Assembly (NCBI RefSeq): GCF_017348835.2
Contig: NZ_CP071375.1
Strand: one strand, 5' to 3'
DNA from: Escherichia coli
GTDB taxonomy: Bacteria > Pseudomonadota > Gammaproteobacteria > Enterobacterales > Enterobacteriaceae
DNA length: 64,000 nt
Positions within the stretch are counted from its first letter, which is position 1. Each line of letters opens with the position of its first letter. Of the stretch, positions 24,930 to 32,577 are shown piece by piece. The position numbers and the translations under genes are program-made. The notes below the pieces were generated by a model. The model was not told the origin of the DNA and searched no databases. It worked only from the letters and a program-made list of their open reading frames with translations.

Positions 24930-24941
24930 CCCCAGAAGGGG
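24930..24941. repeat. 12-bp target-site duplication CCCCAGAAGGGG, left copy, IS4 #2
   Basis: Identical 12-mer at 26368-26379. Confidence 0.9.
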
Positions 24942-26367
24942 TAATGCCAGTCAGTTAAGCAACTGACTGGCTCTTTTTCGGGGCTGTGGGGTATTTCCAG
25001 GGCCTCTCCTTTACCACTCTCGGGAAGGCCCTTTCCCTTCTTGTCGGTAATTTCACAAGTTGTCCCATACTTGCAAGATCGCGCATCAGCTCCGGTATAC
25101 GTCCCGGTGAAGCGCCCTGCAATGTCATCAGCATTCTCATCACCATTCCGCATGATTCTGAGAAGCTCAGTTGATTTGGCCAGTAACCTTTCAGATGTTC
25201 CGCCATTTTAATCATCTGATATCTCACCAGATTATAAGCCAGTAAGACACCCCACAGCTCTTGCTCCACAAGCTCAGGCTTTTTACTTCTCAGCGTCAGC
25301 CTGCTCAGTTGCATCGTCTGTTTTATCTCCCTGTATCCCAGTTCGATTTCCCAGCGATGACTGTACAGATCCGCCATTTCTCCTCCGGGGAAGCGCATGG
25401 CGTCCGTCATCGACGTCAGCAGATGGCAGACTTTTCCTTTGCGCGTCACGGTCAGCAGGCGGGCTGTCACCTCATTTCCCAGTCCCGGCCACTTTTTTCG
25501 TGCCTGCGGGCTGGTTTTCAGCTTCACCAGATGATCGCCTTTACCCAGTTTTCTGATCTCTTCATATTGCGCTCCCTTTCTGAGAGGGATCATCCAGTGG
25601 CGGTGTTCTCCCGCCAGGCTCCAGGCATTTAACAATCCCAGTGAGTAATAACCTTTATCCATTAACGTCAGAGTGTTATCGCCGGTTTGTTCTATAAGTT
25701 GCTCAGCAAGCTCATTTTCGCTGTTCTTCATCGTGCCGAAGGCTGCAGCCGTCAGCAGATGGCTGGTCAGTTCCATCTGGCAGACCATTTTGACCTGCGG
25801 GTAGAGCGCCGGGGTCCCGGCATGTGTCTGGCGAGGGAAGGCTGCATCGTTCTCTGGTGTATCCGGTGTGCGCCAGAACACACCATCGATGGCCAGCAGG
25901 GTCAGGCCGCACCAGTGCGGATGCGGCGTGGCGTTATGCCAGAGCTGCGCTGTTTTCGTGAACACGCGGCGGACAGCCTCACTTCCCAGGCGCTGGCGGG
26001 CCTGAATAACAGCACTGGGGGCAACGAAGGTGCGATTGCCCGGCAGCATGATGTCCAGGCGATTCACAATCTGGTGAAGAGGTTCTTTACGCTCAAGCGC
26101 CATGCCAACAATACACCAGACCATCATTTCGAGGGGAAGACGGCGCTTGCGTAGCGTTACAGTACCTGATTCGGCAAGGCAACGAGAGATGAGTTCGGGG
26201 TCGAGGTAATCTCCCAGAGAAGTCAGTGGGTTACGCAGAGAATCGTAACGGGATACCAGATCAAGAGCCTGTCCAATGTGCATAAAAAAATCCGGAAACG
26301 AGTGAGCGTTTCCGGATTCTTACACAGCCACTGGATCGGTCAACTGATCCTTAACTGATCGGCATTA
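24942..26367 (-). mobile_element. IS4: IS4 insertion sequence, 1426 bp, second copy, same orientation as the first
   Basis: Same terminal inverted repeats and identical encoded proteins as the copy at 191-1616; own 12-bp target-site duplication. Confidence 0.92.
24955..26283 (-). CDS. insG: IS4 transposase (442 aa)
   Basis: Protein identical to the 204-1532 ORF. Confidence 0.9.
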
Positions 26368-26379
26368 CCCCAGAAGGGG
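26368..26379. repeat. 12-bp target-site duplication CCCCAGAAGGGG, right copy, IS4 #2
   Basis: Exact match to 24930-24941. Confidence 0.9.
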
Positions 26380-26408: not shown

Positions 26409-29084
26409 TTAAGCGGATTTTTTCGCTTTTTTCTCAGCTTTAGCCGGAGCGGCTTCTTTTTTCGCTGCAGTTTCACCTTCTACATAATCACGACCGTAGT
26501 AGGTATCCAGCAGAATCTGTTTCAGCTCGGAGATCAGCGGGTAACGCGGGTTAGCGCCGGTGCACTGGTCATCGAATGCATCTTCAGACAGTTTATCCAC
26601 GTTCGCCAGGAAGTCTGCTTCCTGAACGCCAGCTTCACGGATAGATTTCGGAATACCCAGTTCAGCCTTCAGCGTTTCCAGCCATGCCAGCAGTTTCTCG
26701 ATCTTAGCAGCAGTACGGTCGCCCGGTGCGCTCAGACCCAGGTGGTCGGCAATTTCAGCATAACGACGGCGAGCCTGCGGACGGTCATACTGGCTGAATG
26801 CAGTCTGCTTGGTCGGGTTGTCGTTCGCATTGTAGCGAATAACGTTACAAATCAGCAGGGCGTTTGCCAGACCGTGCGGAATATGGAACTGGGAACCCAG
26901 TTTGTGCGCCATTGAGTGACATACACCCAGGAAGGCGTTCGCAAACGCGATACCCGCGATAGTCGCTGCACTGTGAACACGTTCACGCGCTACCGGATTT
27001 TTAGACCCTTCGTGGTAGGACGCTGGCAGATATTCTTTCAGCAGTTTCAGTGCCTGCAGAGCCTGACCATCAGAGAACTCAGATGCCAGTACAGAAACAT
27101 AAGCTTCCATGGCGTGAGTTACTGCGTCCAGACCACCGAAAGCACACAGGGACTTCGGCATGTCCATAACCAGGTTGGCGTCGACAATCGCCATATCCGG
27201 GGTCAGTGCATAGTCCGCCAGCGGGTATTTCTGACCAGTAGCGTCGTCAGTTACAACCGCAAACGGAGTGACTTCAGAACCTGTACCAGAAGTGGTGGTG
27301 ACAGCGATCATTTTCGCTTTCACGCCCATTTTCGGGAACTTGTAGATACGTTTACGGATATCCATAAAGCGCAGCGCCAGCTCTTCGAAGTGAGTTTCCG
27401 GATGTTCGTACATAACCCACATGATCTTCGCGGCGTCCATCGGGGAACCACCACCCAGCGCGATAATCACGTCTGGTTTGAAGGAGTTTGCCAGTTCTGC
27501 ACCTTTACGAACGATGCTCAGGGTCGGGTCCGCTTCTACTTCGAAGAAGACTTCAGTTTCAACGCCTGCTGCTTTCAGTACGGAAGTGATCTGATCAGCA
27601 TAACCATTGTTGAACAGGAAGCGGTCAGTCACGATGAGCGCACGTTTGTGGCCATCAGTAATCACTTCATCCAGCGCGATTGGCAGGGAGCCACGGCGGA
27701 AGTAGATAGATTTCGGAAGTTTGTGCCACAACATGTTTTCAGCTCGCTTAGCAACGGTTTTCTTGTTGATCAGGTGTTTCGGACCAACGTTTTCAGAGAT
27801 GGAGTTACCACCCCAGGAACCACAACCCAGAGTCAGGGAAGGTGCGAGTTTGAAGTTATACAGGTCACCGATACCACCCTGAGAAGCCGGGGTGTTAATC
27901 AGGATACGAGCCGTTTTCATTTTCTGACCGAAGTAAGAAACGCGAGCCGGTTGGTTATCCTGGTCAGTGTACAGGCAAGAGGTATGACCGATACCACCCA
28001 TAGCAACCAGTTTCTCTGCTTTTTCTACCGCGTCTTCGAAATCTTTAGCGCGGTACATTGCCAGAGTCGGGGACAGTTTTTCATGTGCGAACGGTTCGCT
28101 TTCATCAACAACGGTCACTTCACCGATCAGAATCTTGGTGTTTTCTGGTACAGAGAAGCCTGCCAGTTCAGCAATTTTATAGGCTGGCTGACCAACGATA
28201 GCCGCGTTCAGCGCACCGTTTTTCAGGATAACGTCCTGAACAGCTTTCAGCTCTTTACCCTGCAACAGATAGCCGCCGTGGGTTGCGAAACGTTCACGTA
28301 CTGCGTCATAAACAGAGTCAACAACAACAACGGACTGTTCAGAAGCACAGATTACGCCGTTGTCGAAGGTTTTGGACATCAGTACAGATGCAACTGCACG
28401 TTTGATATCAGCAGTTTCATCAATAACAACTGGAGTGTTACCCGCGCCTACACCGATAGCTGGTTTACCGGAGCTGTATGCGGCTTTAACCATGCCCGGA
28501 CCACCAGTCGCGAGGATCAGGTTGATGTCTGGGTGGTGCATCAGTGCGTTAGAAAGTTCAACAGAAGGTTGATCGATCCAGCCGATCAGATCTTTCGGAG
28601 CACCGGCAGCGATAGCAGCCTGCAGAACGATATCAGCCGCTTTGTTGGTGGCATCTTTTGCACGCGGGTGCGGGGAGAAGATAATGGCGTTACGGGTCTT
28701 CAGACTGATCAGCGATTTGAAGATAGCAGTTGAAGTCGGGTTAGTGGTCGGAACGATACCGCAAATAATACCGATTGGTTCAGCGATAGTGATGGTACCA
28801 AAAGTGTCGTCTTCAGACAGAACACCACAGGTTTTTTCATCTTTATAGGCGTTGTAGATATATTCAGAAGCAAAGTGGTTTTTGATCACTTTATCTTCGA
28901 CGATACCCATGCCGGATTCGGCAACGGCCATTTTCGCGAGTGGGATTCGAGCATCTGCAGCAGCCAGAGCGGCGGCGCGGAAGATTTTGTCTACTTGCTC
29001 TTGAGTGAAACTGGCATATTCACGCTGGGCTTTTTTTACACGCTCTACGAGTGCGTTAAGTTCAGCGACATTAGTAACAGCCAT
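26409..29084 (-). CDS. adhE: Bifunctional acetaldehyde-CoA / alcohol dehydrogenase AdhE, 891 aa
   Basis: Protein and synteny. Confidence 0.95.
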
Positions 29085-29560
29085 AATGCTCTCCTGATAA
29101 TGTTAAACTTTTTTAGTAAATCATCTGCTCGAATACGAGAGTATAGTCAGTGCGATGATGATTTGCTTAACCGATGAAAATCAAAAGCTTACTCGCGCTC
29201 ACACTCACTGTGATTTACTAAAAGAGTTTAAACATTAGAGTTATTATCTCTAATGCGTCACTTCCAGGTGGCGTAAGCAAGATTACTCACTTCTGGGTAC
29301 TGATTGCGTGATCCAAATCAAATTTTTGCAAAGCTGACACCTTTCAGCATCGCTTTTCGCCATTATAGCTAACAGTTAATAAATTGTAGTATGATTTGGT
29401 GGCTACATTAGCATGTTTTGCACAACTAGATAACAATAACGAATGATAGCAATTTTAAGTAGTTAGGAGGTGAAAAATGCTGTCAAAAGGCGTATTGTCA
29501 GCGCGTCTTTTCAACCTTATTTATGGCTAACATTATCCGGCTTTTGCTTCGGAGCTAACC

Positions 29561-30208
29561 GTGATTCAGACCCTTTTTGATTTTCCCGTTTACTTCAAAT
29601 TTTTCATCGGGTTATTTGCGCTGGTCAACCCGGTAGGGATTATTCCCGTCTTTATCAGCATGACCAGTTATCAGACAGCGGCAGCGCGAAACAAAACTAA
29701 CCTTACAGCCAACCTGTCTGTGGCCATTATCTTGTGGATCTCGCTTTTTCTCGGCGACACGATTCTACAACTTTTTGGTATATCAATTGATTCGTTCCGT
29801 ATCGCCGGGGGCATCCTGGTGGTGACGATAGCGATGTCGATGATCAGCGGCAAGCTTGGAGAGGATAAACAGAACAAGCAAGAAAAATCAGAAACCGCGG
29901 TACGTGAAAGCATTGGTGTGGTGCCACTGGCGTTGCCGTTGATGGCGGGGCCAGGGGCGATCAGTTCTACCATCGTCTGGGGTACGCGTTATCACAGCAT
30001 TAGCTATCTGTTTGGTTTCTTTGTGGCTATTGCATTGTTCGCTTTATGTTGTTGGGGATTGTTCCGCATGGCACCGTGGCTGGTACGGGTTTTACGCCAG
30101 ACCGGCATCAACGTGATTACGCGTATTATGGGGCTATTGTTGATGGCACTGGGGATTGAATTTATCGTTACTGGTATTAAGGGGATTTTCCCCGGCCTGC
30201 TTAATTAA
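29561..30208 (+). CDS. ychE: MarC-family inner membrane protein YchE, 215 aa (GTG start)
   Basis: Protein and synteny. Confidence 0.85.
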   Translation: MIQTLFDFPVYFKFFIGLFALVNPVGIIPVFISMTSYQTAAARNKTNLTANLSVAIILWISLFLGDTILQLFGISIDSFRIAGGILVVTIAMSMISGKLGEDKQNKQEKSETAVRESIGVVPLALPLMAGPGAISSTIVWGTRYHSISYLFGFFVAIALFALCCWGLFRMAPWLVRVLRQTGINVITRIMGLLLMALGIEFIVTGIKGIFPGLLN

Positions 30209-30945
30209 TTCCTTTCAAATGAAACGGAGCTGCCATGCTCCGTTTACTTTGTCATTATTTTTACTTTGTTCCTGCGCAGTTATCAAAAGCAAAAGGAATA
30301 GGTAAAAATATTCTTCTCAAATTACAGTTAGTTATAAGGATTTCCTTAACTGCTTCTCTTCACCATCATGTTAATTTCGCCACATCATAATCCTGGGCTT
30401 GCTGAAGAATAATTGAAATGATATTAGTAATTCCACTGCCTTTGGTAGAGGAAAGTGCTAAATAATAATCAATTGTTAAATTATTGTGCATTTCACTACC
30501 GGAACTGTAATCAGAAAAGATAGACATGCTTAACCAATCTCTATTTGATTGAATTGAAAGATGTTTGTTAAGACATGGATGCAAGCTATAGATTCTGATA
30601 CGGTCAATAAAAGAGAATTGCTTAACAATTTTGCAAAATGTATTGGCGAGTAAGAAGCGCATTTGGTACTTTCCGGGCAACCGCCAGGCGATTCTTTATT
30701 GGTAATGAGAATAATTAACAATTAAAGAGCGTCGCGAAAGAATAATGTGTCTCGACAGGGGAGACACAGTACGAATCGACATAAGGTGATCGTCTGAATC
30801 ACCAGAATAAATAAAGTCGGTGATAGCAATCCGTAACGATAAAGTAACCTGACAGCAGAAAGTCTCCGAGCCTGTGCAGGGTCCCATTCCGGGATTACAC
30901 ATGCTGGTTAATACCAGTAATTATAATGAGGGAGTCCAAAAAACA

Positions 30946-32577
30946 ATGACCAACATCACCAAGAGAAGTTTAGTAGCAGCTGGCGTTCTGGCTGCGCTAA
31001 TGGCAGGGAATGTAGCGCTGGCAGCTGATGTACCCGCAGGCGTCACACTGGCGGAAAAACAAACGCTGGTACGTAACAATGGTTCAGAAGTTCAGTCATT
31101 AGATCCGCACAAAATTGAAGGTGTTCCGGAGTCTAATATCAGCCGAGACCTGTTTGAAGGCTTACTGGTCAGCGATCTTGACGGCCATCCGGCACCTGGC
31201 GTCGCTGAATCCTGGGATAATAAAGACGCGAAAGTCTGGACCTTCCATTTGCGTAAAGATGCGAAATGGTCTGATGGCACGCCAGTCACAGCACAAGACT
31301 TTGTGTATAGCTGGCAACGTTCTGTTGATCCGAACACTGCTTCTCCGTATGCCAGTTATCTGCAATATGGGCATATCGCCGGTATTGATGAAATTCTTGA
31401 AGGGAAAAAACCGATTACCGATCTCGGCGTGAAAGCTATTGATGATCACACATTAGAAGTCACCTTAAGTGAACCTGTTCCGTACTTCTATAAATTACTT
31501 GTTCACCCATCAACTTCACCGGTGCCAAAAGCCGCTATCGAGAAATTCGGCGAAAAATGGACCCAGCCTGGTAATATCGTCACCAACGGTGCCTATACCT
31601 TAAAAGATTGGGTCGTAAACGAACGAATCGTTCTTGAACGCAGCCCGACCTACTGGAACAACGCGAAAACCGTTATTAACCAGGTAACCTATTTGCCTAT
31701 TGCTTCTGAAGTTACCGATGTCAACCGCTACCGTAGTGGTGAAATCGACATGACGTATAACAATATGCCGATCGAATTGTTCCAGAAGCTGAAAAAAGAG
31801 ATCCCGGACGAAGTTCACGTTGATCCATACCTGTGCACTTACTATTACGAAATTAACAACCAGAAACCGCCATTCAACGATGTGCGTGTGCGTACCGCAC
31901 TGAAACTAGGTATGGACCGCGATATCATTGTTAATAAAGTGAAAGCGCAGGGCGACATGCCCGCCTATGGTTACACTCCACCGTATACTGATGGCGCAAA
32001 ATTGACTCAGCCAGAATGGTTTGGCTGGAGCCAGGAAAAACGTAACGAAGAAGCGAAAAAACTGCTGGCTGAAGCGGGTTATACCGCAGACAAACCGTTG
32101 ACCATCAACCTGCTGTATAACACCTCCGATCTGCATAAAAAGCTGGCGATTGCTGCCTCTTCATTGTGGAAGAAAAACATTGGTGTAAACGTCAAACTGG
32201 TTAACCAGGAGTGGAAAACGTTCCTCGACACCCGTCACCAGGGCACTTTTGATGTGGCCCGTGCAGGCTGGTGTGCAGACTACAACGAACCAACTTCCTT
32301 CCTGAACACCATGCTGTCGAACAGCTCGATGAATACCGCGCATTATAAGAGCCCGGCCTTTGACAGCATTATGGCGGAAACGCTGAAAGTGACTGACGAG
32401 GCGCAGCGCACAGCTCTGTACACTAAAGCAGAACAACAGCTGGATAAGGATTCGGCCATTGTTCCTGTTTATTACTACGTGAATGCGCGTCTGGTGAAAC
32501 CGTGGGTTGGTGGCTATACCGGCAAAGATCCGCTGGATAATACCTATACCCGGAATATGTACATTGTGAAGCACTAA
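30946..32577 (+). CDS. oppA: Periplasmic oligopeptide-binding protein OppA, 543 aa
   Basis: Start set at the ATG giving MTNITKRSLVAAGVLAALMAGNVALA (signal peptide). Confidence 0.92.
   Translation: MTNITKRSLVAAGVLAALMAGNVALAADVPAGVTLAEKQTLVRNNGSEVQSLDPHKIEGVPESNISRDLFEGLLVSDLDGHPAPGVAESWDNKDAKVWTFHLRKDAKWSDGTPVTAQDFVYSWQRSVDPNTASPYASYLQYGHIAGIDEILEGKKPITDLGVKAIDDHTLEVTLSEPVPYFYKLLVHPSTSPVPKAAIEKFGEKWTQPGNIVTNGAYTLKDWVVNERIVLERSPTYWNNAKTVINQVTYLPIASEVTDVNRYRSGEIDMTYNNMPIELFQKLKKEIPDEVHVDPYLCTYYYEINNQKPPFNDVRVRTALKLGMDRDIIVNKVKAQGDMPAYGYTPPYTDGAKLTQPEWFGWSQEKRNEEAKKLLAEAGYTADKPLTINLLYNTSDLHKKLAIAASSLWKKNIGVNVKLVNQEWKTFLDTRHQGTFDVARAGWCADYNEPTSFLNTMLSNSSMNTAHYKSPAFDSIMAETLKVTDEAQRTALYTKAEQQLDKDSAIVPVYYYVNARLVKPWVGGYTGKDPLDNTYTRNMYIVKH

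Follow-up and report, generated by a model that had tools for sequence, protein, structure and literature searches.

What does the long AT-rich spacer between ychE and oppA hold in Escherichia coli: a gene of its own on the minus strand, where an open reading frame (ORF) of 104 codons is found, or the leader and regulatory DNA of oppA? We addressed this question in a stretch of 64,000 nucleotides of E. coli DNA, referred to as the window throughout, whose positions are counted from its first letter. Our analysis leaves little doubt that the spacer, on its plus strand, controls the oppABCDF operon of the oligopeptide transporter, both at the level of transcription and post-transcriptionally, and that the minus-strand ORF is accidental. 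This control region is already known in detail and its explanation is published. Coordinates, conservation, RNA covariation, complementarity to MicF, and the non-coding behaviour of the ORF were established in this analysis, while transcription start sites (TSSs), RNase E cleavage, regulation by MicF, GcvB, and Hfq, and the list of regulators were taken from the literature. The family-wide alignment adds a precise map of those leader and promoter elements that are under selection.

The ychE-oppA spacer and its conservation

The relevant segment of the window carries adhE (minus strand), the 17-codon ychT, ychE (29561-30208, plus strand), and oppA (ATG at 30946, plus strand). The small protein gene ychT (29477-29530), which is annotated in RefSeq, is located just 5' of ychE within the AT-rich adhE-ychE spacer. 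The spacer between ychE and oppA comprises 737 bp (30209-30945) with a GC content of 0.37, which drops to a minimum of 0.31 in 200-bp windows, compared to 0.45-0.55 in the flanking genes; the original observation of about 740 bp of markedly AT-rich DNA in front of oppA was thus accurate. The region was found in 5,423 of 5,426 complete E. coli genomes, and over 851 nt, the window is 100% identical to strain PE164.

For a comparison beyond the species, the ychE neighbourhood was fetched from 80 Enterobacteriaceae species and the 80 spacers were aligned with MAFFT; all identities and motif counts given below refer to the 71 non-Escherichia species among them, unless a different set is named. The gene order is the same in the 80 loci wherever oppA is located on the fetched contig, and the control region lies immediately 5' of oppA, on the same strand and 3' of ychE, i.e., in the position of an oppABCDF leader. 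Wherever both genes are present on the locus, the spacer measures 665-879 bp, mostly 720-800 bp.

Conservation is distributed in blocks. The first part of the spacer (30209-30368) reaches a mean identity of just 0.39. It contains the intrinsic terminator hairpin of ychE (30222-30245, plus strand; AAACGGAGC...GCTCCGTTT followed by a T-rich run), found by terminator scan, whose stem letters are partly kept in other genera, and a non-conserved AT-rich stretch (30246-30368) that leads from this terminator to the oppA control region. At 30369, BLAST conservation against the window begins abruptly, with matches in dozens of genera. Mean identity amounts to 0.76 in 30369-30434 and 0.72 in 30435-30490, the latter with many invariant columns, drops to 0.33 in 30491-30605, and rises to 0.79 in 30606-30680. 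Further downstream, the alignment reveals a conserved stretch at 30703-30720 (for which no separate mean was calculated), followed by mean identities of 0.62 in 30753-30805, 0.87 in 30806-30830, and 0.60 in 30831-30945. The conserved blocks fall on mapped functional elements, as set out in the following.

Promoters and candidate operators upstream of oppA

Two oppA transcription starts, P1 (+1) and P2 (+246), have been confirmed by primer extension in E. coli K-12 (Carrier, Lalaouna & Masse, RNA Biol 2023, PMC9988348); according to the same paper, they were first seen by Igarashi et al. 1997. We transferred the published numbering to the window by means of the primers EM5064, EM4528, EM4516, EM4518, EM1320, and EM5095 from PMC9988348, all of which map uniquely and with 0-1 mismatch. 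The reverse primer of the P1 promoter fusion, EM5064, ends at 30435, and the T7 primer EM4528, from which an RNA starting at +341 is transcribed, begins at 30775. Therefore, P1 +1 corresponds to 30435, which places P2 (+246) at 30680, the MicF site (+372..+392) at 30806-30826, and the oppA AUG at +512. The resulting oppA leader lengths are 511 nt (P1), 266 nt (P2), and 171 nt (end at +341), the last of which reproduces the published 'P3' leader. The locus is the same as the published K-12 oppA 5' UTR (PMC9988348), and the published landmarks fall on conserved elements.

Both starts are preceded by correctly spaced sigma-70 hexamers, with the -10 element 8 nt before 30435 and 30680, respectively. 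P1 (30399-30435, plus strand), located by primers and conservation, is composed of the -35 element TTGCTG (30399-30404), a 17-nt spacer, the -10 element TATTAG (30422-30427), and the start at A30435; TATTAG is identical in 70 of the 71 species, and the TTG of the -35 element in all 71. P2 and a conserved block upstream of it occupy 30606-30680 (plus strand), with TTGGCG (30643-30648; identical in 67/71 species) and TACTTT (30667-30672; 66/71) separated by an 18-nt spacer and the start at A30680. A simple promoter scan did not flag either promoter because both remain below its 9/12 threshold. In the proposed mechanism, these two sigma-70 promoters would drive oppA, P1 with the 511-nt and P2 with the 266-nt leader. 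In the supplement of a published tiling-array study (U00096.2 coordinates minus 1,268,260), an opp transcript starts near 30717, i.e., proximal to P2. A strain difference concerns the P1 -10 element, which reads TATTAG in the window and in all other Escherichia loci examined, but TATTAT in K-12 (G->T at 30427), the K-12 version being nearer to consensus.

Two further promoter candidates were discarded. The Ishihama-predicted promoter TTAACA-17-AAGAAT, which overlaps 30703-30720, does not coincide with a mapped TSS, and its -10 element is not conserved. A sigma-54 reading of TGGCGA-N5-AAGCG in one of the conserved blocks (block B), made by eye, was dropped as the GC dinucleotide is not conserved.

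P1 and P2 stand 246 nt apart in Escherichia, and the distance amounts to 252-256 nt in almost every other genus, while the middle of the P1 leader (30491-30605, plus strand) has kept its length but not its sequence, as judged from its mean identity and from the P1-P2 spacing. Since these central ~115 nt show neither sequence conservation nor conserved RNA pairing, the constant P1-P2 spacing suggests a constraint on the spacing of the DNA, by looping or wrapping. A structure search of the whole P1-to-P2 segment (30435-30680) revealed no conserved RNA pairs, and by elimination only, the conservation of the P1-proximal leader is attributed to a function at the DNA level. The constant spacing and the conserved block at +13..+56 are architectural features for which no explanation has been stated.

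This block (30447-30490, plus strand, corresponding to +13..+56 of the P1 transcript) is strongly conserved in the alignment and includes the IS5 target GTGCTAAAT. Within it, a direct repeat TGTTAA-N5-TGTGCA is found at 30474-30490. The block is probably an operator; its assignment to the ArcA type would follow from the repeat as judged by eye. Upstream of P1, the 71-species alignment reveals a palindrome at 30369-30384, TGTTA-N6-CCACA in the window and TGTTA-N6-TCACA/TAACA in other genera, centred 58.5 bp 5' of P1, which is a candidate CRP-type activator or repressor site. A scan with the CRP-type pattern found 28 sites compared to 28.4 expected, and thus not above chance. Downstream of P2, the conserved GATGAGAATAATTAACA block (30703-30720, plus strand) resembles a Fur box: it matches 13 of 16 positions of AATGATAATCATTATC, the sole such match in the 64-kb window with 0.59 expected by chance, and a consensus scan with the full Fur 19-mer found no match. 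Since scans for the consensus motifs did not exceed chance level, operators of the CRP, ArcA, and Fur type at 30369-30384, 30474-30490, and 30703-30720, respectively, are put forward as hypotheses, with conservation as their sole support. In the literature, Lrp, ArcA, Fur (a repressor), ModE, Nac, and H-NS are named as opp regulators; the conserved blocks at P1 and P2 presumably hold operators for these factors, and we infer which factor belongs to which block.

As a side observation, the conserved ATGAGAAT.ATT at 30703-30724 is readable as a mini-ORF of 6 codons (MRII..*) in many genera; no convincing Shine-Dalgarno (SD) sequence was found upstream of it.

The structured leader and its small RNA partners

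The P2 leader (30681-30960) folds into five plus-strand helices with 32 pairs, which we evaluated in 46 species. In the alignment, 96.1% of the cells are paired, compared to 86.1% in column shuffles and 29-48% with the partners slid against each other. Doubly changed cells number 185 with 56.5 expected, and compensatory changes occur in 18 of the 32 pairs and in four of the five helices. Because the plus-strand helices are supported by compensatory changes, the functional strand is the oppA strand.

Helix H1 (30746-52 with 30762-68) pairs UGUGUCU with AGACACA around the conserved loop ACAGGGG, and all of its 7 pairs show compensatory changes; our scan had flagged its reverse complement as a minus-strand terminator. 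H2 (30775-30780 with 30816-30821), predicted by the fold, connects the RNase E site with the MicF site and encloses H3. None of its 6 pairs shows a compensatory change, and 2 are invariant throughout, such that covariation is neutral on H2. In H3 (30785-30791 with 30796-30803), H4 (30848-30855 with 30872-30880), and H5 (30904-30908 with 30913-30917), compensatory changes support 5/7, 4/7, and 2/5 pairs, respectively. An Rfam scan of 28900-31200 at E<=1 reported no leader family, and its three matches were unrelated and at chance level (E 0.1-0.6). The older predicted sRNA HB84 maps to 30849-30895 and coincides with H4. Small leader ORFs on the plus strand, starting from ATG 30638 and GTG 30455, were considered and rejected, as their start codons are not conserved.

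The third 'start' of Igarashi (+341) has been identified as an RNase E processing site (PMC9988348). Primer EM4528 places it at A30775 (plus strand), the 'P3' of Igarashi 1997, from which the 171-nt leader extends. In the proposed mechanism, the leader would be cut by RNase E at this position, as the literature reports for K-12, and its 3' half would present, in this order, the MicF site (30806-30826), the AU-rich enhancer, the covarying hairpins, and the SD/AUG region, with Hfq, GcvB, and polyamines acting on the last of these, again according to the literature.

MicF has been reported to pair at +372..+392 and to activate oppA translation, with a putative enhancer just 3' of the site; protection in lead probing at these positions and compensatory mutants support the pairing (PMC9988348). 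The site (30806-30827, plus strand) is placed by primer mapping, the published probing, and our own duplex calculation: for MicF(1-35), with the sequence of NC_000913.3, the best duplex is located at 30808-30827 with a dG of -25.3 kcal/mol compared to -16.5 +/- 2.2 for shuffles, none of 60 being as good. GTCGGTGATAGC within the site is nearly invariant in the 71 species. The AU-rich stretch 3' of it (30828-30852, plus strand) is the proposed translational enhancer, which is removed in the oppA-delta399 construct (PMC9988348); in primer EM5095, one arm matches 30803-30826 and the other 30853-30874.

At the 3' edge of the leader, the sequence of the oppA initiation region (30928-30970, plus strand) displays the SD element GAGGGAG (30928-30934), the AUG at 30946, and a C/A-rich GcvB target. 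The best GcvB(56-100) duplex lies at 30932-30970, on the ribosome-binding site and start codon as expected, but it is no better than mononucleotide shuffles owing to the overall C/A-rich composition of the target. Evidence for the GcvB site therefore comes from the literature, which reports that Hfq and GcvB repress at the oppA ribosome-binding site and that the leader is polyamine-responsive, too (PMC9988348). The expectation that the oppA leader is a GcvB target consequently holds as far as the literature is concerned, but not in its placement: the site is located at the start codon and the 3' edge of the spacer, outside its AT-rich part. With Lrp, ArcA, Fur, ModE, Nac, H-NS, RNase E, MicF, GcvB, Hfq, and polyamines as its regulators, the oppA leader ranks among the longest mRNA leaders of E. 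coli and among those under the heaviest regulation.

A homologous leader gives rise to an sRNA in Salmonella enterica, where OppX, derived from the oppA 5' UTR, acts as a sponge of MicF (Matera et al. 2022, as cited in PMC9988348); the same paper quotes OppX-L, -M, and -S with 410, 190, and 109 nt, respectively. By analogy, the E. coli leader may yield a stable, Hfq-bound MicF sponge as well and would then serve as sRNA gene and mRNA leader at once. Along these lines, the MicF-complementary sequence and its flanking helices are kept in E. coli, in two Salmonella subspecies loci, and in ~70 species, nearly invariant across genera, and Hfq-linked RNA from the spacer has been described twice, as an Hfq-dependent sRNA 'ychE-oppA' in E. 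coli (Raghavan et al. 2011) and as an Hfq-enriched interval (Bilusic et al. 2014). Unlike for Salmonella, however, published reports on E. coli disagree over the accumulation of a stable OppX species: Carrier et al. 2023 detected no stable fragment of the E. coli oppA 5' UTR and described MicF as an activator acting on the full mRNA (PMC9988348), and our terminator scan found no terminator-like element 3' of the MicF site. We consider an additional sponge function in E. coli possible, though rather unlikely, and regard the spacer primarily as the control region of the oppABCDF mRNA.

The antisense ORF and the origin of the spacer

The 315-bp minus-strand ORF exists as it had been described; it extends over 30366-30680, starts with TTG, and encodes 104 aa. 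PGAP annotates a shorter version of 98 aa from ATG 30662 (30366-30662, minus strand) as 'hypothetical protein'. The frame overlies the P1 promoter and the leader positions +1..+246. When the spacer was shuffled 2000 times with its dinucleotides preserved, an ORF of at least 104 aa arose in 3.75% of the shuffles; such an ORF is mildly unusual for one spacer and unremarkable genome-wide. Of 60 E. coli genomes in a spread sample, PGAP annotates it in ~73%, while 16, including O157:H7 strains, carry no annotated ORF.

Could the ORF nevertheless be a real, young protein gene of 98 or 104 aa, restricted to E. coli and antisense to the oppA leader? In its favour, one may cite that most E. coli genomes carry it intact and annotated, that few shuffles contain a frame this long, that an SD-like GGAAAG stands 6 nt before ATG 30662, and that NG86 pN/pS values of the ORF amount to 0.25, 0.25, and 0.66, on 4-20 substitutions each; the value of 0.25 against two close E. 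coli strains rests on tiny counts of 3 vs 3 and 2 vs 2 changes. Several findings speak against it. Of all single-base changes in the ORF, about 5% give rise to a stop, from which a neutral loss of roughly 20% is expected at 1.5% divergence, and the 16 of 60 genomes without the annotated ORF are close to this expectation. Moreover, the frame is interrupted by stops in several E. coli lineages, including O157:H7-type genomes without the annotation, and by stops or frameshifts in every other Escherichia lineage. In the aligned frame, an in-frame stop is found in E. coli strain 150 and in Escherichia sp. MOD1-EC7003, and several stops together with a 1-nt insertion at 30397 are found in four further Escherichia lineages; in other genera, the frame is not open in the alignment. 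Substitution rates at the three codon positions are 14.0/16.2/13.5% within Escherichia, without any excess at the third position, and are flat in other genera (39.1/39.4/38.8%).

Database searches point in the same direction. Three ORFs of the spacer were compared with Pfam and NCBIfam, without a match. When 5.8 billion protein clusters were searched by word index, 51 matches were returned, many of them truncated to ~53 aa, which all belong to Escherichia/Shigella or to unnamed metagenome sequences, with the exception of one record labelled Enterobacter hormaechei. An exhaustive HMMER search of 1.84 billion representatives found only 22 proteins, close variants or fragments with 68-96% identity, and no homologue of the ORF beyond Escherichia. 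The ORF is an orphan in this search, and it has no domains.

The absence of an obvious ribosome-binding context, as originally noted, applies to the TTG start but not to ATG 30662, where GGAAAG is present; this motif, however, is simply the conserved P2 -10 element read on the minus strand. Every conserved stretch inside the ORF has its explanation in a promoter or operator element of the opposite strand. The promoter scan found no promoter-like site upstream of the ORF on the minus strand, and a low-level antisense transcript over oppA, reported in the published tiling-array supplement, stops near 30913, short of the ORF.

Conserved homologues with a coding-type substitution pattern would have argued for a gene. 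What was found instead is a broken frame, flat codon positions, and no homologues beyond Escherichia, and since both the homologue and the substitution test fail, the ORF behaves as non-coding DNA. The 104-codon antisense ORF is almost certainly not a gene, and the chance that it is a real E. coli-restricted protein gene is very slight. Equally improbable is a de novo E. coli-specific proto-gene that is occasionally translated to a 98-aa protein; here, a chance frame antisense to the constrained P1/leader sequence would have been kept open partly since this DNA cannot change freely. What novelty is left at the locus lies in this small chance of a translated proto-gene and in the unexplained architectural features of the leader.

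The expectation of a long oppA leader with regulatory DNA rather than a gene is borne out by the mapped 511-nt leader, the promoters, and the non-coding ORF. Under the control-region reading, the minus-strand ORF would be an accidental open frame on the strand opposite to P1 and to leader positions +1..+246. The RefSeq 'hypothetical protein' (WP_072169490.1, WP_001211520.1, and variants) probably represents a systematic over-annotation, and what thousands of E. coli annotations in RefSeq repeat is very probably no gene; a literature search for the protein accessions found no paper that mentions them. WP_072169490.1 / WP_001211520.1 share with other spurious PGAP calls that they are ab initio and family-less predictions in one species, antisense to a functional element. 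Unlike most of these, the call is longer, at 98 aa, despite its location in AT-rich DNA, where stops are frequent.

With regard to the origin of the spacer, its AT-richness was correctly recognised, and genomic SELEX flags H-NS and RNA polymerase in the ychE-oppA spacer according to the literature. H-NS-type DNA in the sense of a foreign island is not what we found, since the AT-rich DNA is vertically conserved across the family: the distribution is not patchy, as that of horizontally acquired DNA would be, but syntenic and conserved in blocks. As both the length of the spacer and its blocks are kept across the family, a recently acquired AT-rich island is ruled out. That the spacer is a decayed, H-NS-silenced remnant of a horizontally acquired gene, with the ORF as its pseudogene, has next to no probability, for its low GC content (0.31-0.37), the H-NS signal from SELEX, and its attraction of IS elements stand against spacers of similar length with the same blocks in Salmonella, Citrobacter, Enterobacter, Klebsiella, and Raoultella, wherever both genes are on the locus, and against the lack of any protein family or homologue in any frame tried.

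IS elements do interrupt the control region of oppA in some strains; the region is split in about 67-87 of the 5,423 E. coli genomes. In the MG1655 reference (NC_000913.3), IS5U is inserted after the invariant GTGCTAA at P1 +27/28 (window 30462/30463), where it parts P1 from oppA and splits the antisense ORF, whereas the leader of the window strain is free of IS5U. W3110 carries an IS2 at ~30427, in the P1 -10 hexamer. In view of IS5 in MG1655 and IS2 in W3110 within the control region, the outcome of opp regulation experiments depends on the K-12 stock.

Elsewhere in the window, two identical direct copies of an IS element are located at ~189-1600 and ~24940-26370, 24,751 bp apart. Each copy encodes a transposase of 442 aa (ORF 24955-26283, minus strand, in the second copy), which we take to be the IS4-type InsG. 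The second copy adjoins the 3' end of adhE, and the pair brackets ~23 kb in the manner of a composite element.
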